NCBI GenBank assembly: GCA_017621415.1
Contig: JAGATD010000033.1
Span: forward strand, 83,311 to 147,310
Reading direction: 5' to 3'
DNA from: Clostridia bacterium
Lineage (GTDB): Bacteria > Bacillota > Clostridia > Oscillospirales > CAG-272
DNA: 64,000 nucleotides
Each line of letters opens with the position of its first letter. Position 1 is the first letter of the stretch. This document shows, piece after piece, positions 2,033 to 55,156 of this stretch. Under the pieces are notes generated by a model. It was not told where the DNA came from. It ran no database searches and saw nothing but the letters and a program-made list of their open reading frames with translations. The translations under genes and the position numbers were made by a program.

Positions 2033-2091
2033 TCTAAATGTAAAATATTGTTAGCAAAAACAAACAAAAAACAAGAGAAAGGAGTGACGGC

Positions 2092-18661: not shown

Positions 18662-18725
18662 TTAGTTGTAAGGTTTTTTGAACCTTTAATTTCTGAATGC
18701 AATTATTAAAAAGGAGAACAAAACT

Positions 18726-31416: not shown

Positions 31417-32859
<1,443 letters not shown>

Positions 32860-32958
32860 TTATATTTTTGCGCAAAAAAGCAAAACCAAAAATGAACTTT
32901 AATTTATCATTTTTCATTTTCAATTTCTCATTTAAGGCGAAATTTTTCGCCTTAAAGC

Positions 32959-34041: not shown

Positions 34042-34089
34042 GACGTTTTTTCTCCTTTCTGTAAACTATTATTTTCAAAATAGCCTGTT

Positions 34090-35592: not shown

Positions 35593-35639
35593 TCTTTTTC
35601 TTCTTTCTTTCTGCCCTTGCAGAAGCTTTTTCGGAAAAA

Positions 35640-36173
35640 TTAAATAACTGTTTTGGCAAGAGCCTCTTCAAACTTATCAAGCCTTGTTTTAACAGAGCCG
35701 TCAAGCTGAACTTCTCCGTATCGGAGCATAACTCCGCCAAGAATATTTTTGTCTTGGGTATTCTTTAAAACAACCGTCTTTCCTGTCTCGTCCTCAAGCT
35801 TTTTCTTCATATTAAGAAGCTGATTTTCGGACATAGGAACAGCGGTTATGGCCTCGGCATGCAGAATTCCGCGCGCATCACAGTAAAGGGCATAATACTC
35901 CTTCTGCAAATGAGGGATAATACGTGCCAGCCTGGATTCGGCCAAAATCTTTATTAGATTTTTGAGCATTAAGTTAAATGAGGACAAAGCCTCGTCAATA
36001 AGCGAAAGTCGTTCCTCTTTAGAGAGGGCAGGGGTGTCGAGAAGCCTTGAATATTCGGGATTTTCTTTCATTATCCCGGCGATGGCAGAAAGCTCCTCCA
36101 GAACCGCTTCGGTCGTGCCCTCTTCCTCTGTCAGAAGAAACAGGGCCTTTGCATATTCCTTGGCTCCGTTCAT
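35640..36173 (-). CDS. atpH: F1 ATP synthase delta (OSCP) subunit
   Basis: 177 aa; YAKALF N-terminus; position between atpF and atpA. Confidence 0.85.
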
Positions 36174-36694
36174 TTTTCATCACCCATATTATTGATAAAA
36201 TCGTCAATTAGGTCGGAATGCTCCTCTGCCTTAACATCGCGCTCAATAACGGCAGATGCTATGCTGATAGCCATTTCCGAAACCTCATTTTTCACCTGAT
36301 TAAGAGCATGCTTTTTCTCAAGCTCAATCTGCTCCTCAGCTCTTTTAAGGGTGCGGGCAGCCTCGTCGTTTGCTTCCTTGATAATTTCCTCCTCACGAAG
36401 CAGTGCGCGGCGCTGCGCATCCTTAAGTATAGCCTCGCTCTCGCTGTGTGCCTCGGAGAGCTTCTTTTCATACTCGGTCTTCATATTTTCCGCATCAGTG
36501 CGAGAGATTTCCGCCTCGGAGTACATATCATCAATCTCCTTTTGGCGGGAATCTATCATTCTCTTAAGCGGAACAAAGGCCAGCTTTTTCAAGAAAAGAT
36601 AAAGGATAAGAAGGTTTAGCCAGGCGAAAAGCATTGTCCATGGATTTACACCGACAAAGGCTTCAAATTTCTGTAAAAACCACTGATATTCCAC
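36170..36694 (-). CDS. atpF: Fo ATP synthase subunit b
   Basis: One N-terminal TM helix followed by a long charged helix; 4-nt overlap with atpH. Confidence 0.85.
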   Translation of the reverse strand: MEYQWFLQKFEAFVGVNPWTMLFAWLNLLILYLFLKKLAFVPLKRMIDSRQKEIDDMYSEAEISRTDAENMKTEYEKKLSEAHSESEAILKDAQRRALLREEEIIKEANDEAARTLKRAEEQIELEKKHALNQVKNEVSEMAISIASAVIERDVKAEEHSDLIDDFINNMGDEK

Positions 36695-36743
36695 TTGCTT
36701 TTCCTTTCTTCTCTAAGCTTTTTGTAATATCCTTATAAGAACA

Positions 36744-36983
<240 letters not shown>

Positions 36984-37028
36984 CTAGATTTCAATTTATT
37001 TTTTATTTTTTGAATACAAATGTAAATA

Positions 37029-37979
37029 TTAATTAGCTTTTTGCCCTTTTTTCTCTGTTTTTTCACGTCTGTTATCGGGAATTTCCTCGGGCGGAGGACA
37101 GGCGCCTCCAACGTAGACCATTGTCAAAAGTGAGAATACAAGGGCTTGAACAAAGCCCGAAAACAGGTCGAAATACACGGAGAGAAATGCGGGAATACCT
37201 ACCTGAAGAAAAGGTATTTGGGAAATCATATCAGGCAGGAATGAAAATACCAGCTGAGAAAGACCTGCCAAAGCAGCATAGATAAGGGCGGTAAGAACAC
37301 CGCCTCCGGCAACGTTACCGAAATGACGGAAAGCAAGAGAAATGGGCTGAGCAATTTCTGATACAATATTCATAGGTGTCATAACCACAATGGGCTCGGT
37401 AAAGCCCTTAAGCCATGCCCCAAAGCCAAAGTTTTTGATATTGTTGTACCATACCATGCCTGTTGTAACAAGCGCCCACGCTAGGGTTACGGAGAGGTCA
37501 GCGGTTGCGGAGGGAAGCAGCTGAGTCATCCCGAGAAGCGTTCCTAAAATAGAAGAAAGAAAAAGTGTTCCTATATAGGGCGCGAACTTCGCGTTATGCT
37601 TGCCCATAGTGTCCTCTACCAGGTTGTAAAGCATTGTAACAAGCTTTTCTATAACTATCTGCACTCCGGTGGGGCGCTTTTTAAGTCCCCTGGTCAGAAC
37701 ACAGGCAAGAACAACTAAAATAAGTGTAACCGCACACAGCGAAATGGTAGTTACAGTTAAAATATTACCAAGCTCCAAAATAGGAATACTTTCCGAAATC
37801 TCCTGAAGAGCAGGGATGCCAAATATTACTCTTGCGCCGTTTGGAGAAATCAGCGCCCCATCATCCTCCGGCACCGGAATAGCATCATAGAGCAGGGCTA
37901 CAAGAAGGCATAGACCGCTGATTACGGCTAAGACCGCAAACAGTACCGCAAGCCTTACTATTATCTTTTTGTTTTTCAT
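37029..37979 (-). CDS. atpB: Fo ATP synthase subunit a (with an N-terminal extension)
   Basis: Polytopic membrane protein; conserved LAFRHFGNV..G (essential Arg). Confidence 0.9.
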   Translation of the reverse strand: MKNKKIIVRLAVLFAVLAVISGLCLLVALLYDAIPVPEDDGALISPNGARVIFGIPALQEISESIPILELGNILTVTTISLCAVTLILVVLACVLTRGLKKRPTGVQIVIEKLVTMLYNLVEDTMGKHNAKFAPYIGTLFLSSILGTLLGMTQLLPSATADLSVTLAWALVTTGMVWYNNIKNFGFGAWLKGFTEPIVVMTPMNIVSEIAQPISLAFRHFGNVAGGGVLTALIYAALAGLSQLVFSFLPDMISQIPFLQVGIPAFLSVYFDLFSGFVQALVFSLLTMVYVGGACPPPEEIPDNRREKTEKKGQKAN

Positions 37980-38927: not shown

Positions 38928-39659
38928 TTATATTTGGCTCTCAGAGCTCATTTTGTATTTTCTGGGAGACATTCCGAAATGGGACTTAAAGGTTTTTGAA
39001 AAATATGCCATATCAAGGAACCCGCATTTTTGCGCAATTTCATTTACCGAAAGCTCGGTAGAGAGAAGCATATCTCCCGCATTTTTTATTCTCACGTGAT
39101 TTAGGAATTTTACAGGGGGCATTTTGGCAACCTCAAGAAATTTGCTTCTGATATAATCCTCAGCATAGCCGCTGGCGCGCATAAGATCGCCCGCTCTCAG
39201 ATGAGGGTCGCCATATCTGTCTTCCATTATGGAAATAATTCTGTAAATTGTGGAATACACATCCTTTGCGTACTCGGTGCGCTTCATAAGAGCAAAACGG
39301 ACAAGGGCATTTATGCAGGCATTTGCATAAGCCTCGTTCTCCAAAGCGTAGCGCAGGGCTGTCTCAGCGAGCATTTTTGCTTCGCCAAACTCTGTGTCGT
39401 GAGTTTCATAAATATCGGTCAAAAAGGTGAGGTTATCAAGGTGCTCACCTATAGAAATTATTCTGTGAGAGATTTTTGAACGGGTTGCATGAGGAACATT
39501 CGGCGGTGCAATAAAAAGGCATCCCGGAGAAAAGGGAATTTCTCCGTACTGGGTGATAAGTGAGCCCTCGCCCTCCAGGACAAACATTATTTCGTGATGT
39601 GGGTGGGTGTGCATTGGCCTAAAGTTAACATTAGGCGCCGTGACCTGTGCGTACAACAT
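38928..39659 (-). CDS. AraC-family transcriptional regulator with N-terminal cupin sensor domain
   Basis: Cupin HTHPHHEIMFVLEGEG; C-terminal AraC HTH LSVNEIAQKCGFLDMAYFSKTFKSHFGMSPRKY. Confidence 0.85.
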   Translation of the reverse strand: MLYAQVTAPNVNFRPMHTHPHHEIMFVLEGEGSLITQYGEIPFSPGCLFIAPPNVPHATRSKISHRIISIGEHLDNLTFLTDIYETHDTEFGEAKMLAETALRYALENEAYANACINALVRFALMKRTEYAKDVYSTIYRIISIMEDRYGDPHLRAGDLMRASGYAEDYIRSKFLEVAKMPPVKFLNHVRIKNAGDMLLSTELSVNEIAQKCGFLDMAYFSKTFKSHFGMSPRKYKMSSESQI

Positions 39660-40085: not shown

Positions 40086-43000
40086 ATGAAAAAATTAAAT
40101 TTTTTAATTGCTTCTATGATACTTTCGCTTGCTGTGCTTGCTTCCTGCACAGGTGGTGAAAGCGAGGATAGTAAAAACAACCCGGGCGGCGGTCAAGAGG
40201 GAGAGACAGCTTCTATTGCGATAATCTTCCCCAATACCGAAAACAGTAAGGTTACAGACAGTTTTTATGAATTTTATTATGCGCTTGGAGACCTTACAGG
40301 AGCAACACCTGAGCTTATCGGTGCAACCGACAGTCGGCGAGAGAGGGAAATCATTTTCGGCAAGAGTGAGCGAGATGTATCTGTTGAGGCTTACCGCAGA
40401 CTTGAAAGAATAGATCTTTCTGATGAGGATATAGATGCTAAAAATCCCAGGGTGCTTATCTACTCTGACGGAAAGTCTGTTGCGGTGGCATATGAGGAGT
40501 GCGAGGATGATGTTGCGCTTATTACGGCTATCGGCATACTTAATGAGAAAATTTCTTCCTTGTATCCTACCACGCAATCGGGCGTTTTACATAAAGAGGT
40601 TGTAAGCCTCGATAAATACTATCAGGCTATTGATGATAAAATGATTTCTGAAAAATGGGCAGCTCTCGAAGACAAGATAGGCGGAACTCTTGGAAAAGAC
40701 ATTGTATCCGCTATGAAAGGGTTGTATTCGCTTTATTCTGATGACCTCATCTCCTGGTTTGCAAACCTTTATGACCCGGCGGTAGGCGGATTTTATTATT
40801 CAAATTCCGCGAGAAATACCGATGGCTATCTTCCCGATGCAGAAAGTACAGAGCAGGCGTTGCGTTTTATTAACACATCGGGCATGATTGAGGGTGTAGC
40901 CGACAGCTATGCAAAGGCCCTGCCGGAGGAGATAGGCGAGCAAATAGTTAACTTTATATACAATCTCCAGGACTCTAACGGATATTTCTATCATCCCCAG
41001 TGGTCAAAAGAGGCGGTAGATAACAGAGTATCCCGCCGTTCAAGAGACCTTAGCCACTGTGTATCAATACTTTCTGCCTACGGTGTGGCTCCCCAGTATA
41101 AAACTCCGTCGGGTGTTGACACCGAGAATGCAGAGCCTGTATCATTCGTTAATCTTACAGGTCGGCTTAGAGCATCTGCTGTTAGCGCGGTTTCGAAAAT
41201 CATTGCGGCCTCAGACTCGGAGGTTGCCGTTGACCCTAATCTTAAGGATGACGTAAGCTTCCGCAAATATCTTGACAGTCTTGATGTACAAAACAATTCA
41301 TACAGCGCAGGAAACACACTTACCGCATTTTTCAGCGAGATAGAGTATAGAGACAGTGTTTTGCAGGAGCAGAATGTTGGTTACTCGCTTGTTGATATAA
41401 TGATAGAGCATCTCAACTCAAAGCAGTTCGAGCATAACGGCCTCTGGCACAAGGAGACTAATTACTACGCAGTAAACGGACTTATGAAGATAAGCGGTGT
41501 TTACTCAAAGGCGGGAGTTCCTATTCCCAATTCCGAGAAGGCTACAAGAGCCGCCATGGATGCCATAACCTCCGAGGAGGAAGCGGGCGCTGTAACCGAT
41601 ATTTATAACACATGGTTCGCAGTCAGCCGTATGTTCAATATTATGACAAAGTATGGCGGTGCAGAGGGAGAAGCCCTCACTGAGACAATGAGAGCCGAGC
41701 TGCTGGCAAAAGCACCTGAGGCTATCAAGACAACGGCTGAAAAATTTGCGGCATTCCTTAAGGAAGACGGCTCATTCTCCTACACTCCTATGTATTCTTC
41801 CAAGAACTCTCAGGGTATGCCGGTTGCTGTTCCAAACAGTGTCGAGGGAGATGTAAACGCAACCGTAATTTGCAGCTCTGATGTTCTCGGTTACATATAT
41901 AGCGCTCTTGGTCTTAGCGATTATAAGGTTCCTATGTGTACATACAACGATTGGAGACATTATAAGGCGATTCTAGAAAATCTTGGACCCGTAATAAAGG
42001 ATACTGAGGATCCTATATACGAGCCGATAAGCTTTGACGATCAATCCCTTGACCAGGAAGAGATATATATAGAAAATCTTACGTTCTCCGAGCGCTCAAA
42101 GGCTGCGGGCGGCGGAGTATCTCTTATCGCTGACCCGAGAGAGGGCTATACTGGAAATGTTCTCAAGGTAACATCTATCACAGGAACAAGCGATTCTATT
42201 GATATAAGCTCGCCCAATCTGTCTCACGCATTTTCTTGCTTCGCTTTTGAGGGAGATTTCTGTCTTGTTTCATCAAATACCGATTTCCCTGTAAGATTTT
42301 CGATAGGTGATTGCTACATTGTATCATTGAAGATATCCGACGGCCACATAAGGCTTGTACAGTCCACCTCGGGAACGGCAAGCAAGTCTCAGGACACAAT
42401 TCTCTGCGACGGACCTGCGCTTGGCGAGTGGTTCAGCTTTAAGGTAGAGTATTACAAGGGCGACCATAACACAGTGCGTATAAAGTTCTATTTTGACGGT
42501 GACCTCACAGACGGTAAGGCGCTTAAGCTTGTTGCTGTAACCGACGGATACTGCGACCCCGAGGGCTTAAAGTTTACCGAGGGCTTTGGCGAGCCGGCTA
42601 CACAGTATCATAGCACTAACCTTTGGTTTATGAAAGGGTATGATATTGTAATGCTTATGGATAACGTAGCATCCTATAAGTCAAACGATATCTACAGGAA
42701 ATATACCGATACAAAAAATCCCCTTAAGCTTAATGTTGATGCGCCTATCCCCGAAGCAGGAGACGATGCGTCAGGCATTCCCGCTTATACAGATACCTAT
42801 TATAATCTTGCGGAAGTAATAGGATCAAGATACGACTATTCTCAAAATCTCGCAAAGGATAGTATATTCAACAAGAAGTACGATAGCGAGACAGATAAAT
42901 CCACCGTCTCACTCCCAACAGTTACAGGTGTTTCGGGCGGAAAGCTTAATGTATCAAACCTCTCTAACTGGACAGCATTCGCTATCGCAAACCTTTCGGA

Positions 43001-45326
43001 GAATAAGGCAGGTACAGCGGGCGCAAAATACGTCTTTGATACAACATTTGTATGGATTGGCGGTCGTCAGACCGAGGGCACAGGCGCTGCCGCATACATC
43101 GGTCCTCTCGGCGCGCATAAGGCGGTTGATAACACATATATGCATGCGTACACCGAAATGACCTTCTCTGAAACCGACCCCGATATTATTTTTGTCGGCG
43201 GCGCGAAGCTTGAGAAAGGAAAAGCCTACAATATAAGAATAGAGTACATTGTGGGTGAATCGATACACGTCTACGTTGATAACGTAGAGGCTTACGGCGG
43301 CTTTGTTGCAAAGGGAGCTAATGCTGATGAAACAACCTTTGAGGCATTCGGCTTCTACATGCGTAAAAACTACGTTGACGCCTTTGAATTCACTTTTGAC
43401 AATACCTTTGTGGGTGTTGTTTATCCCGACAGCGAGGGAGATTATCCTATAGTTGCCGTTGACCCCAACGCGCCTCCTGCCGATGCGGGACTTCCCGAGG
43501 GTCTTGAAACACTTTATGCAAACACTGAGTATAACGGAACAAGATACGACTTTACAACCGTAGCAGATTACACAACAGATAAGATCTATAACAAGACCTC
43601 TGGTGACGGTGTTATAGCAGCCAATATCGCTAAGGTTAAAGACGGCAAGCTCTACGTTGACAATATGGGTCTTAGATGGGAGGCTCTGGCGTTCAAGAAC
43701 GAGGGCGCGACCGAAGGCGGCGATGGATACACTTATGTCTTTGAGGCGGATATCAGATGGATCTCAGGACATCAGGCGACAGATCAGCTGGCAAGCGGCG
43801 CTGCATTCATTGGCTTCCTCGGTGAGCATGCAGCGGTAGAAAATAGCTATATGCCGGCCTGGGGTTATATGAAGTTTATCGAGGGCGAAAGCAACAAGAT
43901 GATAATAGGCAACACCGAGATAAATCGCGGCACAACCTACAATCTTCGCTTCGAATATACCGTTGGTACAGGAGTTAAGATGTATGTAAACGGCACTCTT
44001 GCCGACTTTGGAAAGACTAACGCAGGCAAAAACGGTGACAGCTCCACATACCAGGGCTTCGGTATTTACTTAAGAAAGAGCTTTGCTCCCGACCTTGAAT
44101 TTACCGTTGATAACGTATATATGAATGTATTTGGGCCTGATGATATTGTTCCCGACACAACTCCCGGAAAGCCTATTCAGACCGAAACAGCAAAGGTTCT
44201 TTCCACACCTACAGGTGCTGATGGCATTGTTGTGCTGATGCACGATGACGGAACACTCGATACAGTAAGTATAATGGATAAGATCTTTGCCGACTACGGT
44301 CTGAGAGGAAATATTGCTCTTCTCGGTAACAAAGTATATGCAGACGGCGCTTATAAAACTGCCGAGATAGCAAAATGGCAGGCATATCTTAACACAGGCC
44401 GTTGGCAGATATCCTCTCACTCAATGACTCACACCTTTTGGGGACTTACCGACAAGGCAGAAACGGTTTATGCACCCGACGGCACAACTGTTCTTGCAAC
44501 AATTACCGAAGACGGAATGATCACTTATGAGGTAGTAACCTCAGCTGAGATTTTGCGTACCGCTTTCCCGGGACAAAGAGTACTCACCTTTGCTTATCCC
44601 GGCTTCTGGGCGCAGCGCTCACTTGGCGAAAGCCGCTTCTCAGCGGTGGCAAGGCTTCTTGTTGATAAGACCTATATCGCTGGCAGAGATGCTTACGGGA
44701 ACGCAAACATTTCACTGGCAGACAAAACAACCGATTGGGAGTTCTCTCCCTCGTATCAGCTTGACAGCACTAATGTAAACGACATTGTTACTGCGGTGAA
44801 TAGAGCTAAGAACGGACAAATGGCAGTTATCTTTACTCACAAGGTAATAAGCGACGACACTGAGATTCCGTCAGGCTCTGAAACAAGCTACATTCACGAG
44901 AGTGACTACTGCACCGTTGCGGCAAAGGTTAAGGATCTTGCAGATGACGGTAAGGTGTGGAATGCATTTTACGAGGATGCAGTACTTTACACCAGAGAAG
45001 CGCAGGCGGCAAATCTTACATACAGCGCTACGGGCTCAAAGATAAGGTTTAATCTTACAACCCCCGACCTTGATGTTGATATATACAACTATGCTCTCAC
45101 TGTCAGGGTTCTTGTTCCCGAAGCTTGGCAAACCGTTAAAATAGCGCAGGGAAAAAATGAAAAAGAAGTGACTGCAAGCCTTAAGGACGGTGTTTGGTGC
45201 GTTGATGTTGAGGTTGTTCCCGGTAGTGGAACAGTAACTTTGACTAATGCTGCAGAGCCTGATGTTCCCGATGTTGAGGGGGCCCCTGACAGCGGTGATA
45301 TAAGCGGCGATTGGACCGAAAACTGA
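40086..45326 (+). CDS. 1746-aa multidomain lipoprotein: N-domain, alpha/alpha-toroid-like domain, three LamG-like jelly-roll modules, CE4/NodB-like polysaccharide deacetylase domain, C-terminal beta domain
   Basis: Lipobox MKKLNFLIASMILSLAVLASC. The toroid region (nt ~40641-41990) is collinear with 45352..46725. Modules end in MLMDNVASY, FTFDNTFVGV and FTVDNVYMNV. Deacetylase-like VVLMHDDGTLDT ... SSHSMTHTFW. Confidence 0.85.
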   Translation: MKKLNFLIASMILSLAVLASCTGGESEDSKNNPGGGQEGETASIAIIFPNTENSKVTDSFYEFYYALGDLTGATPELIGATDSRREREIIFGKSERDVSVEAYRRLERIDLSDEDIDAKNPRVLIYSDGKSVAVAYEECEDDVALITAIGILNEKISSLYPTTQSGVLHKEVVSLDKYYQAIDDKMISEKWAALEDKIGGTLGKDIVSAMKGLYSLYSDDLISWFANLYDPAVGGFYYSNSARNTDGYLPDAESTEQALRFINTSGMIEGVADSYAKALPEEIGEQIVNFIYNLQDSNGYFYHPQWSKEAVDNRVSRRSRDLSHCVSILSAYGVAPQYKTPSGVDTENAEPVSFVNLTGRLRASAVSAVSKIIAASDSEVAVDPNLKDDVSFRKYLDSLDVQNNSYSAGNTLTAFFSEIEYRDSVLQEQNVGYSLVDIMIEHLNSKQFEHNGLWHKETNYYAVNGLMKISGVYSKAGVPIPNSEKATRAAMDAITSEEEAGAVTDIYNTWFAVSRMFNIMTKYGGAEGEALTETMRAELLAKAPEAIKTTAEKFAAFLKEDGSFSYTPMYSSKNSQGMPVAVPNSVEGDVNATVICSSDVLGYIYSALGLSDYKVPMCTYNDWRHYKAILENLGPVIKDTEDPIYEPISFDDQSLDQEEIYIENLTFSERSKAAGGGVSLIADPREGYTGNVLKVTSITGTSDSIDISSPNLSHAFSCFAFEGDFCLVSSNTDFPVRFSIGDCYIVSLKISDGHIRLVQSTSGTASKSQDTILCDGPALGEWFSFKVEYYKGDHNTVRIKFYFDGDLTDGKALKLVAVTDGYCDPEGLKFTEGFGEPATQYHSTNLWFMKGYDIVMLMDNVASYKSNDIYRKYTDTKNPLKLNVDAPIPEAGDDASGIPAYTDTYYNLAEVIGSRYDYSQNLAKDSIFNKKYDSETDKSTVSLPTVTGVSGGKLNVSNLSNWTAFAIANLSENKAGTAGAKYVFDTTFVWIGGRQTEGTGAAAYIGPLGAHKAVDNTYMHAYTEMTFSETDPDIIFVGGAKLEKGKAYNIRIEYIVGESIHVYVDNVEAYGGFVAKGANADETTFEAFGFYMRKNYVDAFEFTFDNTFVGVVYPDSEGDYPIVAVDPNAPPADAGLPEGLETLYANTEYNGTRYDFTTVADYTTDKIYNKTSGDGVIAANIAKVKDGKLYVDNMGLRWEALAFKNEGATEGGDGYTYVFEADIRWISGHQATDQLASGAAFIGFLGEHAAVENSYMPAWGYMKFIEGESNKMIIGNTEINRGTTYNLRFEYTVGTGVKMYVNGTLADFGKTNAGKNGDSSTYQGFGIYLRKSFAPDLEFTVDNVYMNVFGPDDIVPDTTPGKPIQTETAKVLSTPTGADGIVVLMHDDGTLDTVSIMDKIFADYGLRGNIALLGNKVYADGAYKTAEIAKWQAYLNTGRWQISSHSMTHTFWGLTDKAETVYAPDGTTVLATITEDGMITYEVVTSAEILRTAFPGQRVLTFAYPGFWAQRSLGESRFSAVARLLVDKTYIAGRDAYGNANISLADKTTDWEFSPSYQLDSTNVNDIVTAVNRAKNGQMAVIFTHKVISDDTEIPSGSETSYIHESDYCTVAAKVKDLADDGKVWNAFYEDAVLYTREAQAANLTYSATGSKIRFNLTTPDLDVDIYNYALTVRVLVPEAWQTVKIAQGKNEKEVTASLKDGVWCVDVEVVPGSGTVTLTNAAEPDVPDVEGAPDSGDISGDWTEN

Positions 45327-45351
45327 TTTATCGGTACGAGGATTTTTGAAG

Positions 45352-46725
45352 ATGAAAAACGAAAAATATTATAAGGCTCTTGCCGACAAGGTTGGCGGTG
45401 AGCAGGGAATAAAAATAGCCGAGGCTATAAGAGATATGTACACTCTCTACAAGCCCGAAATGATAGACTGGTTTGCGAACCTTTACGACCCGGCAGTTGG
45501 CGGATATTATTATTCTAACGGCGCAAGAGATAACGAAAAAATTCACTACCAGGGTGTCAGCTACGACCTGCGCCCCGATACCGAGTCTACCGAGCAGGCT
45601 CTGAGGTTTATCAGCACCTCGGGTCTTCTCGGAGACGGAACGCTAAAGGAAAAGCTCCCCGCCTGGATGCAGGAGCAGATAGTAAGGTATATTAAAGGGC
45701 TACAGGACCCTAACGGATTTTTCTATAATCCCCAGTGGCCTAAGGAGCTTACCGACTCAAAGCTTTCAAGAAGAGCCAGGGACCTTAGCTGGTGCGTGTC
45801 TATTCTTGAAAACCTAGGCTCAGCGCCCACATACGATACCCCAACAGGGGTAAAGGGCGACGGACTTGACATAGACGGCAAACCCATTAAAGTCATTGGT
45901 GAAAGCTCCTGCACCGAGAGGGAAGAGGGGCCTAAAAGCTCGGTTGCGATACCAAAAGAGCTTGAAAACAAGGAAAGCTTCATTAATTATTTAAATTCCC
46001 TCGACATAAAGCACGAGTCCTACTCGGTAGGTAATACGCTGACAGCAATTGCAGGGCAGATAATTTACAGAGACAGGGAGCTTGAAGCTGCGGGAGCTGA
46101 CTATTCGCTCAGAAAGATTGTTATCGACTGGCTTAACGAAAACCAAAATCCCGAAAACGGACTCTGGCACGAGACCGCAAACTATTACGGAGTAAACGGT
46201 CTTATGAAAACCAGCGGAGTTTACGGCAAGATAGGGGTGCTGATGCCCCATGCCGACAAAGCGGTGAAATCCGCCATAGATGCTATAAGCACAGACCAGA
46301 CTCCCGGAGCTGTAACCGATATTTACAATACTTGGTTTGCGGTTACAAGAATTAAGCGACATTTGCGTACCTACGGCGGCGACGAGGGGCAGAGAATGGC
46401 AGATAAAATAGTCGAGGACCTAATAAAAATGGCTCCCGAGGCTATAAGAATTACCAAAGAAAAGCTTTCGGTATTCGCTAAGCCCTACGGCTCATTCTCT
46501 TACACTCCTATGGCATCGGCAGGCAGGTCACAGGGAATGCCTGTTACCTTTAGAGGCGCCTATGAGGGCGACGTTAACGCAACCATAATCTGCTCATCTG
46601 ATATTCTCGGATATATGTATTCTGCACTTGAATTGTCTGATGTGAGAGTTCCTATATATTCTCCCTTGGACTTCGTAAGATACATTGAAATTCTTGAGAA
46701 AAACAGGGCTAAAATTATTGGTTAA
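45352..46725 (+). CDS. alpha/alpha-toroid-like repeat protein, no signal peptide (paralogue of 779..2032 and of the toroid domain of 40086..45326)
   Basis: Collinear similarity to the lipoprotein toroid region over the whole length (WFANLYDPAVGG(Y/F)YYSN, STEQALRF, NGLWH.E.NYY.VNGLMK.SGVY, GAVTDIYNTWFAV, GSFSYTPM, EGDVNAT(I/V)ICSSD(I/V)LGY). Confidence 0.8.
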   Translation: MKNEKYYKALADKVGGEQGIKIAEAIRDMYTLYKPEMIDWFANLYDPAVGGYYYSNGARDNEKIHYQGVSYDLRPDTESTEQALRFISTSGLLGDGTLKEKLPAWMQEQIVRYIKGLQDPNGFFYNPQWPKELTDSKLSRRARDLSWCVSILENLGSAPTYDTPTGVKGDGLDIDGKPIKVIGESSCTEREEGPKSSVAIPKELENKESFINYLNSLDIKHESYSVGNTLTAIAGQIIYRDRELEAAGADYSLRKIVIDWLNENQNPENGLWHETANYYGVNGLMKTSGVYGKIGVLMPHADKAVKSAIDAISTDQTPGAVTDIYNTWFAVTRIKRHLRTYGGDEGQRMADKIVEDLIKMAPEAIRITKEKLSVFAKPYGSFSYTPMASAGRSQGMPVTFRGAYEGDVNATIICSSDILGYMYSALELSDVRVPIYSPLDFVRYIEILEKNRAKIIG

Positions 46726-46777
46726 ATAAAAAGAGCGCAACAAAAAACAAAATAAATTAAATTGAAAGGAGACTTTT

Positions 46778-46906
46778 ATGGAAAAGCTGAAAGAATTTTA
46801 TGAAGCGGCAGAAGTCGAGGTAGTTCTTTTTGAATTTTCCGATATTGTAACTACCTCAGGTTGGGTAGACCCGCCTGGTGAGGGTGACATTGGTGACTGG
46901 GCGTGA
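46778..46906 (+). CDS. small 42-aa ORF (MEKLKEFYEAAEVEVVLFEFSDIVTTSGWVDPPGEGDIGDWA), not in the ORF track; paralogue of 2092..2232
   Basis: ATG 7 nt after AAAGGAG (46765-46771). Same position between toroid gene and secreted jelly-roll gene as at 2092, with the same DI(I/V)TTSG core and acidic Gly-rich tail ending in W-x. Confidence 0.6.
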   Translation: MEKLKEFYEAAEVEVVLFEFSDIVTTSGWVDPPGEGDIGDWA

Positions 46907-46953
46907 AATTTGTAAAAACAAAATTTTCAAAAATATGAAAGGTGAAAAAAACT

Positions 46954-49146
46954 ATGAAAAACACAAACCATTCCCGCATTCTTATTTTAGCTCTCTCGCT
47001 TGTAATTCTCGTAGGCGCTATGGTTGGCTTCTCCTCAAGCGCTGAGGACACAGAATATACGAACGAGATCGTATCTATGAACATCGCATACGGCGACACA
47101 GTTCAGGTTCTTATTGCTCTTGACGCTCCCATAGACAACCAGGATGGTATTACTGTTAAGTATATCGACCCTAATGGTGACGAGCAGACCGCAACCTATT
47201 GGAAGACAATGGACGTTAAGGGTACCAATCGCCCTGTATGGTACACTAAGGGCATATCCGCAAAGGACCTTGGTCAGGATGTTGTTGCTACCGTTTATGT
47301 TGACGGTGAGGCTATCAGCACCGCAAATGTTAGCGTTGGACATTACCTTTACACAAAGCTTTACAAGGAAGGTTTTATCAACGCAACCGAAGAAACAGAC
47401 CTTCACAAGAAGGAGCTTTACCAGAACCTTCTTACCTATGCGGCATCTGCTGAGACTGTTCTTTGGAATGATAAGGCAGAGAATGCATCTAACCAGAGAG
47501 TTCTTATTACCGATAAGCTTTACGTTTATGCGGTTGATGGCACTGTTGACGCAGACAAGAAGCTGACAGAGGACGTGCTTACAAAGTCCGAAACTGTAAC
47601 TCTTAACTATACCGGCACCGCTCCAGAGGGATATGAGTTTACAGGAATTTGGCTTTCTTCTATCGACGGTACATCGGTAATAAAGGATGGCGTTGCTACA
47701 ATGCCTACCGTTCACGGTGTTTACGAGCCTATATTCGACTCTGTGACCCATACCGTCGGCAAGTATTATTCCAGCGAAACCGAGGGCACAAGATACGACT
47801 TTGATACAAAACTCAATCTTTCCGGTGACGATCAGACAGACCTCTCGGTTTATAATGCTGAAACCAATCCTACAGGCATTCTTGCAAACGAGCTTGGTGC
47901 AGATGCAACAGCCAGCCTTGTTTCCGATAAGCTTTCTACTCTTGACAACTCTACAGGCGAACTTGTATTTAATATGACCTCCACCGACTGGACCGGCTTC
48001 AATCTTGCTAACAAAAGTGACACAGAAGGTGCTACGGGCTCAAAGTATATCGCGGAGTTTGACTTTACCTACATTGATTCCGCAGCTTACACAGGCTCAG
48101 GCAGCTCCAATCAAGTTGCATTCTACATAGGACCCACATCTTATAACGAGAACGACAAGTATATGCACTCTATAACTCACGCAAAGTTTGAGGCAGACCG
48201 TGAGGTAATGATGTTCGGTAACGTTCCTGTGGTAAAGGGCAGAACCTATACTATTCGAATCGAAACCACCGTTGACGGTAGCTATGCTCTTTACGTTAAC
48301 GACGTTCTCGCTGCCGATAAGCCTGGTTATTACACCAATGAAGCTGAAATTCCTGCAGATTATGATGAAACAATCTATGCAGGCTTTGGATTCACTGTTC
48401 GTCAAAGACACGCAGGCGATAGCTTCTCGTTCTCTGTTGATAACTTCTATATGGGTACTATCGACTCATATTATGATGATAAGACGGTAGCAGGTGACAG
48501 ATACGACTTTACCGATAGCTTTGATGTTTCGGTATATGATGCGGAATCCAATTCCACAGGTCTTCTTGCAGGAACTCTTACAAACGATGATGTTGATGCT
48601 CTTCAGACTAAAAAAACTCTGTCGCTTACCAACACCGACAGTCGTCTTCTGGTTGATATGACAACAAGAGAATGGGCAGGATTTACTATTGCAAACAGAG
48701 AAGCAGTTACTGCATATGAAGGCTCTGTTCATATTGCCGAGTTTGACTTCACCTACATTTCTAACACTGCATATACCGGCACAAGCAAACCAGACTATAA
48801 TGCATTTGCTTTTGGTATCTCCAGTAGTGGAGGTGCTCTTAACAGTATGATCTGTTACAACTATGTGGACCACAAGGATGATACTTTTGGAGGATCTCTT
48901 GCATATAATACTGCAGTATTCGAGATGAACAAGACCTACAGGATAAGAATTGAGAGCACTGTTGGCGGTGACGAGCTTATCTACGTTGATAACGTTCTCG
49001 TTTCTAAAAACGCAAGTGCCAAAGGTAAATCGAACGATCCTTACATCTACGCAGGTCTTGGATTCTACTTCCGTGACAGACACGCAGGAGATGCTTTGTC
49101 ATTCTCTATCGACAATCTGTTTATGACAACTCTTGATCCTAAGTAA
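46954..49146 (+). CDS. secreted protein with an N-terminal beta-rich region and two LamG-like jelly-roll modules
   Basis: Start at ATG 46954 (AAAGGTG RBS). Signal peptide MKNTNHSRILILALSLVILVGAMVGFSSSA. Modules GTRYDF...KGRTYTIRIETTVDG..LYVNDVL...FSVDNFYMG and GDRYDF...NKTYRIRIESTVGG..IYVDNVL...FSIDNLFMT. Confidence 0.85.
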   Translation: MKNTNHSRILILALSLVILVGAMVGFSSSAEDTEYTNEIVSMNIAYGDTVQVLIALDAPIDNQDGITVKYIDPNGDEQTATYWKTMDVKGTNRPVWYTKGISAKDLGQDVVATVYVDGEAISTANVSVGHYLYTKLYKEGFINATEETDLHKKELYQNLLTYAASAETVLWNDKAENASNQRVLITDKLYVYAVDGTVDADKKLTEDVLTKSETVTLNYTGTAPEGYEFTGIWLSSIDGTSVIKDGVATMPTVHGVYEPIFDSVTHTVGKYYSSETEGTRYDFDTKLNLSGDDQTDLSVYNAETNPTGILANELGADATASLVSDKLSTLDNSTGELVFNMTSTDWTGFNLANKSDTEGATGSKYIAEFDFTYIDSAAYTGSGSSNQVAFYIGPTSYNENDKYMHSITHAKFEADREVMMFGNVPVVKGRTYTIRIETTVDGSYALYVNDVLAADKPGYYTNEAEIPADYDETIYAGFGFTVRQRHAGDSFSFSVDNFYMGTIDSYYDDKTVAGDRYDFTDSFDVSVYDAESNSTGLLAGTLTNDDVDALQTKKTLSLTNTDSRLLVDMTTREWAGFTIANREAVTAYEGSVHIAEFDFTYISNTAYTGTSKPDYNAFAFGISSSGGALNSMICYNYVDHKDDTFGGSLAYNTAVFEMNKTYRIRIESTVGGDELIYVDNVLVSKNASAKGKSNDPYIYAGLGFYFRDRHAGDALSFSIDNLFMTTLDPK

Positions 49147-49198
49147 TCTTTGGTTGATAAATTAAGATTAAGATTTCATAACGAACATAAACAAAAAA

Positions 49199-49225
49199 AT
49201 GCGGCTCTTTGGAGTCGCATTTTTA
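49199..49225 (+). terminator. intrinsic terminator after 46954..49146
   Basis: ATGCGGCTC-TTTG-GAGTCGCAT followed by TTTTTAT. Confidence 0.7.
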
Positions 49226-49228
49226 TAT

Positions 49229-49390
49229 AAGGCTTCCCCAGCGAAGCGTGTTGGGGAAACTGTCACGCAGTGACTGATGAGGTAAGAGATAGGCTAGATT
49301 ATTGTTTGACTTGCGTTTTTCTTAAAGTTAGCCTCTGGAACACCTCATCCGTCAGGCTTCGCCTGCCACCTTCCCCCACTGGGGAAGGCT
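49229..49390. repeat. inverted pair of REP/MITE-like double-hairpin elements (same family as 33021..33078 and 33141..33199)
   Basis: Left copy 49229..49283 (AAGGCTTCCCCA..TTGGGGAAAC TGTCAC-GCA-GTGAC TGATGAGGT). Right copy 49341..49390 in reverse orientation (CACCTCATCC GTCAGGC-TTC-GCCTGCC ACCTTCCCCC-ACT-GGGGAAGGCT). Confidence 0.75.
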
Positions 49391-49410
49391 AATATTTTCA
49401 ATTTCTAATG

Positions 49411-49456
49411 AAAAAGCCTTTCCCGAGAGAGACGCTTCGTAAAGAAGTTGTCTCTC
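49411..49456 (+). terminator. second hairpin terminator
   Basis: CCCGAGAGAGAC-(16 nt)-GTCTCTCTCGG followed by TTTTTATTT. Confidence 0.6.
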
Positions 49457-49581
49457 TCGGTTTTTATTTCAATAAAAAAATGACACTTAACACAAAGATT
49501 GTGAAAGTGTCATAGTGGGTTACATACTTTAAAAAGGTTAAAACCTTACCGAAATTTAATGTTTTTTCGGTGTGTAAAGAA

Positions 49582-49754
49582 TGATATATCTCTAACGAGA
49601 TATGATATACAGCTTTGCCGTATGATATATTTTCACTTCGTGAAAACATGATATAATATCCGTTCCTGAATATGCCGCAGGCATATATCATCGCTCGTAG
49701 AGCGATATCATACCAAAGGAATATCACCCGTTCCGCAGAGGAACGGATATCATT
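49582..49754. repeat. array of eight (A)TGATAT(A) motifs, four forward then four reverse, interleaved with short tetraloop-type hairpins
   Basis: ATGATATA at 49582, 49603, 49623 and 49649. Reverse complement (T/G)ATATCAT at 49685, 49705 and 49747, plus a partial AATATCAC at 49721. Hairpins: ATATCTC-TAAC-GAGATAT, TTTTCAC-TTCG-TGAAAA, ATATGCC-GCA-GGCATAT, CGCTC-GTA-GAGCG, CCGTTCC-GCAGA-GGAACGG. Confidence 0.7.
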
Positions 49755-49801
49755 GAGGCGCACTCCGTAAGGACGTGCGCCTCGAAAGAAGGGCTTTTTT
49801 A

Positions 49802-50626
49802 TTACATCTTCATCAGATAATCGTATGTAGCTTTTACAAGCTTTGTTTTTTGGTGCAGGACCTCTCGGGGGCAGTTCTTTGAGTCGCCGGGGATTTCATA
49901 GTTAAACATCCCCTCGTAATTTATCTCTCTCAGACCGTCAATAAAGTCCTGCCAGTCAATATTTCCACGGCTGAACGGGAGAATATGCTGGTCCTCACCG
50001 CCGTCGTTATCGTGAACGTGCAGAGCTTTTATAAGGCTTCCTCCCTTTACGAGAAATTCCTTTTGAGAGGAGGTTTTTGTCCTGTTAAGGTGGCCTGTAT
50101 CAAGGCAAATTGCAAATTTCGGTGAGCCAACTCTCTTGATTAGCTCGAGAATAGGGTCAATTCCCACAGGAGCGCCGCCGCCAAGGTTTTCAAGACAGAT
50201 GTACATATCAATATGCGCCGTACGTCTTGCAACCTCCTTAAGAGCAACAACATTTTTTTCAAATATGTCCTCGTCGGTCACATCAACCCCGCGCATATAG
50301 TCGCAGTGTAGAACAGAGCACTTAATGCCGATAGCCTCGTAGAGCTCTGCCTGGCGGACAATATAGTCAATAAAGCTTTCACCCTCGCAGACAATAAGAG
50401 AGGGAAAAGCCAAGTGACCCTGCGTTGCGGTAATGCCATGCTCAGCCATAAATTCTTTGAATTTTCTGCCGTTTTCTCTATAGTCTCCATCTCTTGCCAA
50501 AATGGCGCTGCCGTGCTCATGAGAAAGCTCAATATGAGTTACTCCGTCTTTTTCAAACTCGAGAATAGCCTCTTCGGGCTCCTCGGTGTTGTAATACTGT
50601 GACCATATACTAAATGGCGCGTTCAT
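49802..50626 (-). CDS. xylose-isomerase-like TIM-barrel protein (sugar phosphate isomerase/epimerase family)
   Basis: 274 aa; THIELS, CLENL, CLDTGH and HVHDN patterns typical of the AP_endonuc_2 fold. Confidence 0.75.
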   Translation of the reverse strand: MNAPFSIWSQYYNTEEPEEAILEFEKDGVTHIELSHEHGSAILARDGDYRENGRKFKEFMAEHGITATQGHLAFPSLIVCEGESFIDYIVRQAELYEAIGIKCSVLHCDYMRGVDVTDEDIFEKNVVALKEVARRTAHIDMYICLENLGGGAPVGIDPILELIKRVGSPKFAICLDTGHLNRTKTSSQKEFLVKGGSLIKALHVHDNDGGEDQHILPFSRGNIDWQDFIDGLREINYEGMFNYEIPGDSKNCPREVLHQKTKLVKATYDYLMKM

Positions 50627-52642: not shown

Positions 52643-55156
52643 TTAAGATTTTGCCGGTCCTGCGGTGTCGGAGCCGTCTCCGACCAGTCCGAGGCGCTTT
52701 GCGGCATCCTCTCTCATCTTATATTTAAGAACCTTTCCCGCAGCATTCATAGGGAAGCTGTTAACAAATTCAATGTACTTCGGAACCTTATGACGCGCCA
52801 TACTTGCCTTAATGTAGTCGGACATTTCCTCAACGGTAACGCTACCCGGCTCTTTAAGGATAATGCAAGCCATAATTTCCTCACCGTATTTTTTATCGGG
52901 AACACCGATAACCTGTACGTCCTTTGTCTGAGGGTGAGTATAGATGAACTCCTCAATTTCTTTAGGATAAATATTTTCGCCTCCGCGGATTATCATATCC
53001 TTAAGACGTCCTGTAATGCGGTAGTTGCCATCCTCGTCACGGGATGCAAGGTCGCCCGAGTGAAGCCAGCCGTCCTCGTCTATTGTGCCCTTTGTTGCCA
53101 TAGGCATTTTGTAATAGCCTTTCATCTGGTTGTAGCCCTTGGCGCAGAACTCACCGTTAACACCGGGTCCAACCTCTTCGCCTGTTTCGGGGTCTACTAT
53201 CTTGCAGCGAACGTGCGGGAATGCGTATCCAACCGTTTCGGTACGCACCTCAAGTGAGTCAGTCCAGGAGCTCATTGTGTTTCCGGGAGCGCATTCGGTC
53301 TGACCGTAAACGCTGACAATACCTGTCATATTCATTTCATCGGGCCTTGCGGCTCTGCGCATAAGCTCAGGGGGACAGCCCGCACCTGCCATAATACCTG
53401 TTCTCATATGGGAGAAGTCGGTAGAACGGTAGCTTGGGTGGTTAAACATTGCGATAAACATCGTGGGAACGCCGTTAAAGCAGGTGATTTTTTCCTGATT
53501 TATACAAGCGAGAGATGATTTTGCGGAGAAGTATGGCATAGGACACATGGTAGTTCCGTGGGTCATTGATGATGTCATAGACAGTGTCATTCCGAAGCAG
53601 TGGAACATAGGCACCTGAATCATCATTCTGTCAGCGGTGGAAAGACCCATGCGGTCGCCTATACACTTGCCGTTATTTACAACATTGTAGTGAGTAAGCA
53701 TAACTCCCTTAGGGAAGCCTGTTGTTCCTGAGGTGTATTGCATGTTACATACATCGCTTGGGCGTACCGCCGCTGCCATTTTAGCAACCTGCTCGGAGCT
53801 TACAAGCTTGTATCTTGCCATAGCCTCGTCAAAGGTGAGAGAGCCGGGCTGCTTGAAGCCTACTGTAATAACATTTCTGAGGAATGGCAGCTTCTTTGAA
53901 TGAAGAGGCTCGCCGGGAACGGTGTCTTTTATTTCGGGACAGAGTGTGTTTATAATTTCCTTGTAGTTTGAGTCAAGGCAGCTGTCAATCATAACCAGTG
54001 TATGGGTATCAGACTGACGGAGCAGGTACTCGGCCTCGTGAATCTTATATGCGGTGTTAACTGTGACAAGAACTGCACCGAGCTTTACGGTAGCCCAGAA
54101 TGTGATATACCACGCGGGAAGGTTTGTTGCCCATATTGCAACCTTAGAGCCCGCCTTTACACCAAGAGAAACAAGAGCTCTTGCAAAGCGGTCAACGTCC
54201 TCACGGAACTCGGCATAGGTTCTTGTGTAATCAAGTGTTGTGTACTTAAAGCAGTACTGGTCAGGGAACTCGTCGGCAACTCTGTCAAGCACCTGTGAAA
54301 ATGTAAGGTCGATAAGCTCGTCTTTTTTCCACACATACTGGCCTGTGCCGTCATGGTTGAAGTAGAGTTTCTTTTTCATATCCCTTGTTGAATGGAAGCG
54401 GGACATGTAGTTTACAAAATGAGGGAAAATAATTTCGGGGTCAGAGAGCTCGTCGAGCCACTCGGGCTTCCACTCAAGAGAGATAAAGTTATCGTAGTTT
54501 ACCGAGGAAAGAGCGCGCATAACGTCGTCAATAGGCATACTGCCCTCGCCGATAAGCTGATATGTTCCCTCATCGTCAGAGTCTCTTAAGTGAACATGGC
54601 GCACATAGCAGCCAAGGTTTTTTATTGTATCATCACCCGACTCACCGTTGTCTCTGTATGGGTGATGAACGTCCCAAAGAACCGCAAGATTGTCGCTTGC
54701 AAAACGGTCAAGCATATCTCTAAGTCTTGCTGTGTTTGAATAAATTCCGCTTGTTTTTACAAGAATTGTAACATCCGAGGCTTCAGCATAAGGTAAAAGC
54801 TCGGTGAGCACCGAATATACAGTATCCTCATTGTCATTAAGCGCGCATACAACAACATAGGGCACACGGCTGTCGCTTGCAGTATTTATAAGAGACTTTA
54901 CGGTATCCTTTACAGATGGGTCTTTGGAGATGTCGCAGGATGTGTCAAAGCAGGGAATAGTGAGCTGCTTTTCGCGAAGAGTGCGCACTGTTGCAGCAGT
55001 ATTATACTTGTGGAAAGGACCTCCGCGGTCGGTAAGAGCATTAAAGCTTTGAAGATTATAAACCTCTATGCCGGAAAAACCCATTTCCTGCGCTGTTTCC
55101 AGCATTTCATCAAAGGACAGCCCCGGCCAGCCTCTTGTGGAAAAGGAGAGCTTCAT
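52643..55156 (-). CDS. fusion protein: N-terminal xylose-isomerase-like TIM barrel (~270 aa) + C-terminal AMP-forming acyl-CoA synthetase/ligase (~560 aa)
   Basis: N-terminus: MKLSFSTRGW...GFSGIEVY...HVHLRD...SLEW. C-terminus: AMP-binding motif YTSGTTGFPKGV, GYGQTE-like VYGQTE, WLHSGDL, GRLKDMIIRGGENIYPKEIE. ATGA overlap with the upstream gene. Confidence 0.85.
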   Translation of the reverse strand: MKLSFSTRGWPGLSFDEMLETAQEMGFSGIEVYNLQSFNALTDRGGPFHKYNTAATVRTLREKQLTIPCFDTSCDISKDPSVKDTVKSLINTASDSRVPYVVVCALNDNEDTVYSVLTELLPYAEASDVTILVKTSGIYSNTARLRDMLDRFASDNLAVLWDVHHPYRDNGESGDDTIKNLGCYVRHVHLRDSDDEGTYQLIGEGSMPIDDVMRALSSVNYDNFISLEWKPEWLDELSDPEIIFPHFVNYMSRFHSTRDMKKKLYFNHDGTGQYVWKKDELIDLTFSQVLDRVADEFPDQYCFKYTTLDYTRTYAEFREDVDRFARALVSLGVKAGSKVAIWATNLPAWYITFWATVKLGAVLVTVNTAYKIHEAEYLLRQSDTHTLVMIDSCLDSNYKEIINTLCPEIKDTVPGEPLHSKKLPFLRNVITVGFKQPGSLTFDEAMARYKLVSSEQVAKMAAAVRPSDVCNMQYTSGTTGFPKGVMLTHYNVVNNGKCIGDRMGLSTADRMMIQVPMFHCFGMTLSMTSSMTHGTTMCPMPYFSAKSSLACINQEKITCFNGVPTMFIAMFNHPSYRSTDFSHMRTGIMAGAGCPPELMRRAARPDEMNMTGIVSVYGQTECAPGNTMSSWTDSLEVRTETVGYAFPHVRCKIVDPETGEEVGPGVNGEFCAKGYNQMKGYYKMPMATKGTIDEDGWLHSGDLASRDEDGNYRITGRLKDMIIRGGENIYPKEIEEFIYTHPQTKDVQVIGVPDKKYGEEIMACIILKEPGSVTVEEMSDYIKASMARHKVPKYIEFVNSFPMNAAGKVLKYKMREDAAKRLGLVGDGSDTAGPAKS

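Follow-up and report, generated by a model that had tools for sequence, protein, structure and literature searches.

A 42-residue peptide gene in a Clostridial surface-protein operon is one member of a very large, unannotated family resembling modified-peptide precursors

What does a reading frame of 42 codons do between the gene of a cytoplasmic barrel protein and the gene of a large secreted protein, and what is kept constant when its neighbours change? The question is raised by peptide gene B, at 46778..46906 on the + strand of a 64,000-nucleotide stretch of a Clostridia bacterium genome (contig JAGATD010000033.1; this whole stretch is called the window below). An earlier note, made from the DNA letters, had taken the gene for a conserved accessory peptide specific to its locus. 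We find that the peptide is one member of a very large, unannotated family of gut Clostridia that resembles the precursors of modified peptides; because the family is huge and other members stand beside maturation genes of peptides that are made by the ribosome and modified after translation (RiPPs), the locus-specific accessory role was not borne out. The gene and its parts are as follows.

46765..46771, + strand: Shine-Dalgarno-like AAAGGAG, with the ATG of peptide gene B 6 nt on (sequence read)
46778..46906, + strand: peptide gene B, 42 amino acids (aa) plus stop, the gene under study (translation read from sequence)
46778..46858, + strand: leader-like module, residues 1-27, MEKLKEFYEAAEVEVVLFEFSDIVTTS (family alignment and profile of cassette-linked peptides)
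46859..46903, + strand: acidic Trp-ended tail, residues 28-42, GWVDPPGEGDIGDWA, resembling the tail at the C-terminus of the operon's lipoprotein (tail comparison)

The frame translates as MEKLKEFYEAAEVEVVLFEFSDIVTTSGWVDPPGEGDIGDWA and ends at TGA; a 457-aa gene (45352..46725) precedes it and a signal-peptide gene (46954..49146) follows, with 228 nt separating the two. Its translation, the AAAGGAG before it and its place between these two genes all agree with the earlier note. The N-terminus of the peptide is charged and non-hydrophobic, with no signal peptide. Purifying selection on a protein, also proposed in that note, is upheld by the orthologous frames, in which the ratio of non-synonymous to synonymous change (dN/dS, Nei-Gojobori counts) is 0.03-0.29. 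Substitutions are mostly synonymous, the proportion of differing sites being 0.35-0.74 for synonymous (pS) and 0.02-0.31 for non-synonymous positions (pN); the window frame and that of one related locus, L140, differ by 12 synonymous and 2 non-synonymous changes. Peptide gene B looks translated, protein-coding and under purifying selection, and it is almost certainly a real gene of a large Clostridial peptide family.

A word-index search with the window peptides returned 14 close relatives in two subfamilies, and a profile of those relatives matched 1,284 clusters at E<=1e-3 among 1.84 billion representative proteins; the clusters are drawn at the 50% identity level and their number is a lower bound. 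With the dN/dS values above, this places the conservation far above chance. Nearly all of the best 150 of the 1,284 matches are 33-70 aa long, and three long matches (P0015, P0033 and P0138) were set aside as repeat proteins and false positives. The family consensus has a Lys-rich start followed by the pattern Y-E-x-P/A-E-x-E-[VI]-[VI]-x-F-E-x-x-D-[IV]-[IV]-T-[TA]-S, and it ends in an acidic tail that is short and variable, in many members only 5-10 residues. Across 146 aligned members D22 and S27 never vary, and at least 90% keep Y8 and T25. Peptide B fits this description in its length, its Lys-rich start, its D, S, Y and T positions, its acidic tail and its lack of a signal peptide.

Pfam and NCBIfam scans of both window peptides and seven canonical family members gave no model matches, and a family with no such model would have its genes overlooked or left nameless in annotation; DVITTS-type motif strings likewise gave no relevant literature match. 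A degenerate DNA pattern for the motif, searched in the GTDB species-representative genomes, found at least 120 loci. Among the 119 matches listed, 115 fall in small open reading frames (ORFs) starting M-K-x-Y-E. Most come from gut and rumen hosts classed as Lachnospiraceae, Oscillospiraceae, Ruminococcus or, among metagenome-assembled genomes (MAGs), as unclassified Clostridia. A DNA pattern specific for ...GGWT tails found 3 loci.

When ORFs were called around each family peptide and the neighbouring proteins clustered, a recurrent maturation cassette appeared near the peptides, usually downstream, in many Clostridial genomes. Pfam and NCBIfam name an HprK-related/ScmC-like protein (cluster c1), a PqqD protein of the RiPP recognition element (RRE) kind (c5), a signal-peptidase-I-like protein (c2) and an NTP_transf_5 protein (c10); a protein of 550-614 aa (c6) is read as an ATP-binding cassette (ABC) transporter from its size and sequence. 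The same databases name a radical SAM/SPASM enzyme (c18) that goes with Cys-containing tails, so that the same leader seems to serve a second kind of maturation. Longer Cys-containing tails occur at loci L047, L109 and L123, each with the radical SAM/SPASM enzyme adjoining, and also at L091, yet there the stretch examined holds no such enzyme. A hidden Markov model (HMM) of 27 cassette-linked peptides, from which the window sequences were left out, scores peptide B at 41.8 bits (E=3.6e-12) and the paralogous window peptide A at E=5e-4, and no other of the 1,329 window ORFs. Since Y, D, T and S are invariant in cassette-linked and orphan peptides alike, we infer that both are recognised by the same kind of machinery.

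This cassette has a close counterpart in the linear polyphosphorylated peptides (LPP), RiPPs of Bacilli that were shown experimentally in Paenibacillus (Popov et al., Nat Commun 2026, PMC13381572). Their precursor LppA has the conserved leader YxxPxVLxHQxIxFETxxS and a variable C-terminus; the discrete RRE LppB binds the YxxP motif, and a P-13A change in LppA weakened this binding; the HprK-like kinase LppK polyphosphorylates Ser+3; the set is completed by the signal-peptidase-I-like LppS, the NTP-transferase LppN and the MsbA-like exporter LppD; and the biological function is stated by the authors as unknown (PMC13381572). Beside the relatives of the window peptide stand all five of these gene types, namely signal-peptidase-I-like, discrete RRE/PqqD, HprK-like kinase, NTP_transf_5 and ABC exporter, with 1-3 precursor genes per locus in both systems. 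Both precursors are short, with a conserved leader, a conserved Thr/Ser near its end and a highly variable C-terminus; the Y-x-x-P that opens the LppA leader is present in window copy A and lacks its Pro in copy B. The relatives' gene set is that of LPP RiPPs, and the window peptide itself resembles the LPP precursors at the level of motifs.

The two systems also differ. The family motif ...EVVxFExxDVITTS departs in spacing and content from the ...VLxHQxIxFETxxS of LppA: peptide B reads ...FEFSDIVTTSG and many relatives ...FETEDVITTSG, an F-E-(T) with an invariant Ser whose spacing is unlike that of the Bacilli F-E-T/Ser+3 motif. The window subfamily, moreover, lies in a surface/secreted-protein operon and has a conserved Trp-ended tail, whereas the Bacilli LPP genes lie in capsule loci. 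The supplement of the LPP paper lists Clostridial signal-peptidase/RRE pairs (clusters #4 and #9) with their precursors given as 'ND', and the string ITTS is absent from it (PMC13381572); a Clostridial precursor family is therefore apparently undescribed there. One or more of the Bacilli precursors in supplementary file 2 of that paper (MTKKPYAPPSVLSHQKVSFETKASGNDNGGGDGGGPGGNFWS) have a Gly/Asp-rich tail ending W-x, like the window peptides. One family locus, L013, has three tandem peptide genes (2481..2891) that precede an HprK-like gene and adjoin divergent genes, which read, from translations only, as a LytTR-type response regulator and a multi-pass membrane kinase; in its layout it recalls signalling loci of the agr type.

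In the window the peptide belongs to an operon of another kind, and a paralogous locus, A, lies near the start of the stretch.

38928..39659, - strand: AraC-family regulator (cupin plus HTH_18), divergent from the operon (domain scan)
40086..45326, + strand: large lipoprotein, 1746 aa, lipobox LAVLASC (sequence and domain comparison)
45258..45323, + strand: C-terminal tail of the lipoprotein, PDVPDVEGAPDSGDISGDWTEN, with a GD(I/L)x(1-3)(D/E)W motif common to the peptide tail (tail comparison)
45352..46725, + strand: alpha/alpha-barrel ('toroid') protein B, 457 aa, cytoplasmic (no signal peptide), no Pfam family (AlphaFold2 model, scans)
46954..49146, + strand: secreted protein D1B, 730 aa, with signal peptide, N-terminal X domain and LamG/concanavalin-like modules (scans, model)
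47059..47463, + strand: X domain of D1B, residues 36-170, a beta-sandwich-plus-helix (hhalign, tblastn, model)
49369..49388, + strand: terminator-like hairpin 3' of D1B (terminator scan)
46784..49803, + strand: exchanged cassette (peptide, D1B and terminator), with no DNA similarity to the otherwise syntenic locus L005 (DNA comparison)
779..2032, + strand: alpha/alpha-barrel protein A, 417 aa (paralogy with barrel B)
2092..2232, + strand: peptide gene A, 46 aa, same family, with YQAP motif and ...GGWT tail (translation, family HMM E=5e-4)
2299..3753, + strand: secreted protein D1A, 484 aa, sharing the N-terminal domain of D1B (paralogy with D1B)

In a scan of 45000..49500 the sole + strand terminator-like site is the one that follows D1B, and none separates D1B from the barrel gene, so the operon genes are probably co-transcribed. 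The same block of large protein, 457-463 aa protein, 44-46 aa peptide and secreted protein of about 700 aa recurs in metagenomic contigs, whose secreted proteins are 42-85% identical to D1B by global alignment. The divergent AraC regulator is also found at L130 and L140, and L141 and L142 have other upstream genes. In the lipoprotein a barrel domain (about residues 190-640) is joined to LamG-like modules and to a region that is deacetylase-like. Consecutive parts of this lipoprotein have paralogues in the free barrel protein and in the LamG portion of D1B; barrel gene, peptide and D1B look like a split copy of the big lipoprotein gene.

Pfam and NCBIfam scans of the neighbours returned nothing for the barrel proteins or the large proteins, and by sequence neither the barrel protein nor the secreted protein matched a solved structure, even with the threshold at E<=10. 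The AlphaFold2 (AF2) model of barrel B is confident (mean pLDDT, the model's own confidence score, 95) and forms an alpha/alpha barrel, in line with the toroid that the earlier note had recognised; Foldseek gives weak matches, the best being class II terpene cyclases and GH76 at TM 0.27-0.36. For D1B the model is of low confidence (mean pLDDT 58) and was used for fold class only; its jelly-roll modules, also named as such in that note, agree with PF13385 in homologues and with concanavalin/LamG-like Foldseek matches of this model. Some barrel homologues (P0277, P0284, P0285 and the L014 protein at 621..2687) are fused to an N-terminal XRE-type helix-turn-helix (HTH) and a middle domain (PF18491), which suggests that the barrel can act as a cytoplasmic sensor domain.

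Locus A repeats the arrangement with diverged sequences. Its peptide, MRCKKEKSLYQAPEIVITELYIPDIITTSGPLGGDESDGFDAGGWT, is 38% identical to peptide B and retains the Y, the D-I-x-T-T-S-G and the terminal W, while the DNA of the two peptide regions aligns with scattered identity only; the earlier statement that the peptide pattern is kept while the DNA has diverged therefore stands. The flanking genes are paralogous at the two loci (38% identity and E 4e-91 between barrel proteins A and B; 30% and E 9e-19 between D1A and D1B), so the gene order is the same at both. The toroid, peptide, secreted-protein order holds in this sense for the window, as the earlier note had it, and is not fixed elsewhere: at L130 the order is peptide, secreted protein (D1), barrel, lipoprotein.

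Which of its neighbours does the peptide go with? A related MAG, JAZTXO01, carries the orthologous locus L005, in which the barrel gene shares 92% identity with that of the window and the downstream housekeeping genes are kept, whereas the peptide is 41% and D1 35% identical to the window's, the two having been replaced together. Two further loci with window-type peptides, L014 and L108, belong to this MAG. DNA similarity between the window and L005 ends at 46783, 6 nt into the peptide ORF, and restarts at 49804; the 3' part of the lipoprotein gene (44123..45357), tail included, is likewise not common to both. A D1-like gene follows every window-type peptide examined. Peptide and downstream secreted protein are swapped as one cassette, and this joint replacement beside a barrel that stays 92% identical bears out the functional tie to the secreted protein for which the earlier note had argued. 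The barrel protein was also considered as the peptide's specific partner and judged unlikely, its 92% identity being kept when the peptide is swapped.

The second tie is to the lipoprotein, whose C-terminal tail the peptide tail resembles in a locus-specific way. In the five window-type operons the tails are:

window: peptide ...PGEGDIGDWA; lipoprotein ...PDSGDISGDWTEN
L141: peptide ...RPDLGDLDDWSKC; lipoprotein ...APEIGDIDTNEWHGQ
L142: peptide ...RPNLGDMGDWST; lipoprotein ...APNIGDIDTDEWYNK
L014: peptide ...NVDQDGWT; lipoprotein ...NVGDTDWT
L138: peptide ...DDGGWTNSNVW; lipoprotein ...EEGGWTNQKDW

Tail pairs were compared by alignment score with permuted pairings; exact 4-mer matching of tails was dropped as too crude, the common ELPFVP motif inflating the control. 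Cognate tail scores in these five operons total 220, against 110 +/- 11 for shuffled tails, and among the 120 permutations the true pairing of peptide and lipoprotein scores highest. Elsewhere in the family the peptide gene is often followed by one for a small protein, lipid- or membrane-anchored, whose long Pro/Thr/Glu linker leads to an end like the peptide tail, giving pairs such as GELPFVPAE with ...IELPFVPAF, ...ENMTDKG with ...DNMTEKG, GDPYEGEDDPIP with ...GYDPNEGELDPIP, and DGDDTPIDPFEP with ...SGDDLPIDKFE. Over 23 loci of the wider family the cognate scores sum to 473, against 355 +/- 24 for permuted pairings, and 0 of 5000 permutations attain the cognate sum; the top-ranking partner is the cognate one at 5 loci, about 1 being expected. 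At nine loci (L034, L037, L039, L045, L050, L070, L077, L084 and L089) the product of the post-peptide gene ends in ...ELPFVPA(E/F/K) or in a copy of the locus-specific tail. Both this apparent tail mimicry and the joint exchange of peptide and D1 are, as far as we could find, new.

The third tie runs through the X domain at the N-terminus of D1B, modelled at a pLDDT of about 80. In 57 loci of the wider family a large protein (c0) is encoded directly upstream of the peptide, on the same strand and -28 to 91 nt away; c0 conservation is limited to the C-terminal ~300 aa, part of which matches the X domain by hhalign (probability 93.5%, E 2.4e-7), and c0 proteins match D1-like genes by tblastn at E 1e-6 to 1e-9. 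The peptide gene lies upstream of D1, whose X domain is N-terminal, and downstream of c0 proteins, whose X region is C-terminal; because D1 and c0 have the domain in common, the peptide gene abuts the X-encoding gene end in both arrangements. N-termini are signal-peptide-like in 22 of 25 complete c0 copies, and a C-terminal anchor, LPXTG-like or hydrophobic, was found in 0 of 57. These large secreted proteins (L010-L129) reach 2,437 aa with no Pfam match; examples are L090 1878..4796 and L127 116..7429.

Taken together, these ties suggest how the peptide might work. Residues 1-27 would serve as a leader, held by an RRE and shown to a kinase and a peptidase encoded elsewhere in the genome and acting in trans; the invariant Ser27 would be the likely phospho-acceptor, and the peptidase would cut near TT/S. 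The 15-residue acidic Trp-ended tail would then be released and exported as a free copy of the lipoprotein tail. So freed, it would probably bind the same partner as the lipoprotein tail, for which the best candidate is the X domain of the co-varying D1, and the peptide could modulate or compete with the docking of D1 to the lipoprotein. We hold the chances even that the window peptide is processed in trans in the LPP manner; the docking of tail and X domain is a tentative proposal, and rather unlikely.

A wider version of the same proposal, which we consider improbable as it stands, is a surface-docking system of gut Clostridia with three parts: anchored proteins bearing tails, anchor-less secreted proteins bearing X domains, and a tail-mimic peptide that is LPP-like in its processing, exported and possibly phosphorylated. 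The free mimic would release, block or regulate docking, and the window operon, with its lipoprotein ending ...GDISGDWTEN, its peptide ending ...GDIGDWA and its secreted X-LamG protein, would be one version of this system. By analogy, cohesin-dockerin assemblies offer a likeness, with large anchor-less secreted proteins that have a conserved terminal domain (0 of 57 here with a C-terminal anchor) beside small membrane- or lipid-anchored proteins with long linkers and a short conserved end motif. In the case described here, however, the partner would be a short linear C-terminal tail rather than a folded dockerin, the binding is predicted, and cellulosomes have nothing that corresponds to a soluble copy of the tail with a leader.

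Several observations weigh against this reading. Homologues of the RRE, peptidase, kinase, NTP-transferase, ABC exporter and radical SAM genes are absent from the 64-kb window and from 173.5 kb of window-type loci, so the machinery would need to act in trans, which is an assumption. The family HMM scores three Bacilli LppA at -0.7 to 0.1 bits, with no detectable homology, and lasso leaders at about 0 bits; what links the window peptide to LPP is thus the gene context of the relatives, together with likeness of motif, and not homology of sequence to LppA. In copy B the motif reads YEAA, Ala standing for the Pro of YxxP, where copy A has YQAP; the Pro is missing too in 8 of the 27 cassette-linked Clostridial peptides. 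The tail of the window subfamily is conserved (...GD(I/L)xxDW, ...GGWT), which is atypical of a hypervariable RiPP core. The tail statistics of the five operons are driven strongly by the single locus L138, and at locus A the one visible end of an upstream protein, at 719, has no matching tail ending in W. With co-localisation and homology tests both negative for the window locus, specific LPP membership is not established, and the window peptide is best placed among RRE-dependent precursors of the LPP/lasso type, as an orphan variant from Clostridia.

The alternative that survives best, though we think it unlikely, is that the peptide is used unmodified, as an accessory factor (a chaperone, strand donor, or secretion or stability factor) for the jelly-roll protein, with no RiPP processing. 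It would account well for the strict adjacency of the peptide gene to a D1-like gene in all window-type loci, for the swapping of the two as one cassette, for the position of the peptide gene at the X-encoding end of its neighbour and for the distance from any maturation genes. It is harder to reconcile with the locations of the two proteins: the peptide has no signal peptide and D1 is exported through Sec, so that they would not share a compartment if the peptide had no other way out of the cell. Nor does it explain why the tail copies the C-terminus of the lipoprotein, and the leader is conserved at the same positions as in peptides encoded beside RRE, peptidase and kinase genes, indicating the same recognition machinery.

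A pair of the Rap-Phr or RRNPP-like kind, in which the peptide would be a pheromone precursor and the upstream barrel its cytoplasmic receptor, we regard as distinctly doubtful. The likeness lies in the layout, a peptide gene of about 40 codons directly 3' of the gene for an all-helical cytoplasmic protein of ~400-450 aa, as in rap-phr cassettes; in the XRE-type HTH at the N-terminus of some barrel homologues (P0277, P0284, P0285 and the 688-aa upstream protein of L014); and in the three tandem peptide genes of L013 beside its putative LytTR-type regulator and membrane kinase. A specific receptor should co-vary with its ligand, however, and the barrel of the window keeps 92% identity to that of L005 though the peptide there is another (41% identical, with another tail). 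The fold is an alpha/alpha barrel and not a tetratricopeptide-repeat (TPR) solenoid, and the sole Rap structure in the Foldseek list ranks 50th (E 0.78, probability 0.10). Barrel homologues also occur with no peptide gene (L008, L009), and the same barrel domain is extracellular in the lipoprotein. Phr and PapR, finally, carry Sec signal sequences, which the window peptide does not.

It is highly improbable that the gene encodes a genuine lasso-peptide precursor, which would have a Y-x-x-P/A leader with Thr at -2, followed by Gly at +1 and, to close the macrolactam ring, an Asp/Glu at +7 to +9. The leader does resemble Firmicute lasso leaders at motif level, copy B (...TTS|GWVDPPGE...) placing T26 at -2, G28 at +1 and E35 at +8, and copy A (...TTS|GPLGGDESD...) having E at +7 as well as D at +9; in tails this rich in acidic residues, D or E at +7 to +9 is expected by chance. 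An asparagine-synthetase-like cyclase or B2 protease was seen neither among the large window ORFs scanned against Pfam, both peptide loci included, nor among the recurrent neighbour clusters of the family, and many family tails, at 5-10 residues, are too short for a lasso. The paeninodin-type precursors of Bacillota are the nearest comparison, with the leader shape MKK-[Y/W]-x-x-P-x-L-E-V-...-T-x | G and accessory genes for an HprK-like kinase, a nucleotidyltransferase, PqqD and an ABC exporter; the family profile scores 6 bits on paeninodin, and the Clostridial family differs in having no lasso cyclase or B2 protease and in its many short tails. Last, the location in a 228-nt gap between two genes of one operon might suggest that the region upstream of the secreted-protein gene is an RNA element or a leader that is not translated; this is ruled out for practical purposes in favour of a protein gene, as the earlier note had supposed, by the synonymous bias and low dN/dS among orthologues, by an amino-acid pattern kept over 1,284 clusters despite diverged DNA, by the lack of any Rfam match to the region at E<=1 and by an unremarkable fold (z = -1.0, with 26 of 200 shuffles folding equally well).

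Elsewhere in the window, an ORF of 1,784 aa at 7660..13014 matches no Pfam family and is not related to the lipoprotein of 1,746 aa; the genes upstream of it encode a protein with MutS domain V, an ATPase of the Fumble/BadF type and a CBS protein. Two tandem paralogues (57443..59710 and 59860..62145) combine HTH, cupin and AMP-binding (adenylate-forming) domains, and a third AMP-binding enzyme (52643..55156, - strand) is fused to a xylose-isomerase-like TIM barrel, both unusual architectures. ORFs of 418 and 344 aa overlap on opposite strands at 18549..19805 (- strand) and 18726..19760 (+ strand), the minus-strand one with no Pfam match; 20146..20976 (- strand) encodes a Listeria-Bacteroides-repeat protein and 22396..23196 (- strand) a WG-repeat protein. 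The remaining housekeeping genes include rimP-nusA, an F-type ATP synthase operon (31417..37979) and addB (24299..27628).

The family to which peptide B belongs is large, with at least 1,284 clusters at 50% identity, and concentrated in gut and rumen Clostridia. It appears to extend to Clostridia a RiPP class first described in 2026 from Bacilli, and to supply the precursors that were left undetermined for the Clostridial clusters. Two observations also lead to testable hypotheses of function: the variable 'core' copies the C-terminal tail of an anchored protein encoded with it, and the peptide genes abut genes of anchor-less secreted proteins that have a conserved domain in common. For the window itself, this explains why so small an ORF is kept in two paralogous operons and which parts co-evolve with it, the lipoprotein tail and the secreted X-LamG protein. 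The docking system, if true, would be a previously unrecognised one and would give LPP-type peptides their first biological role.

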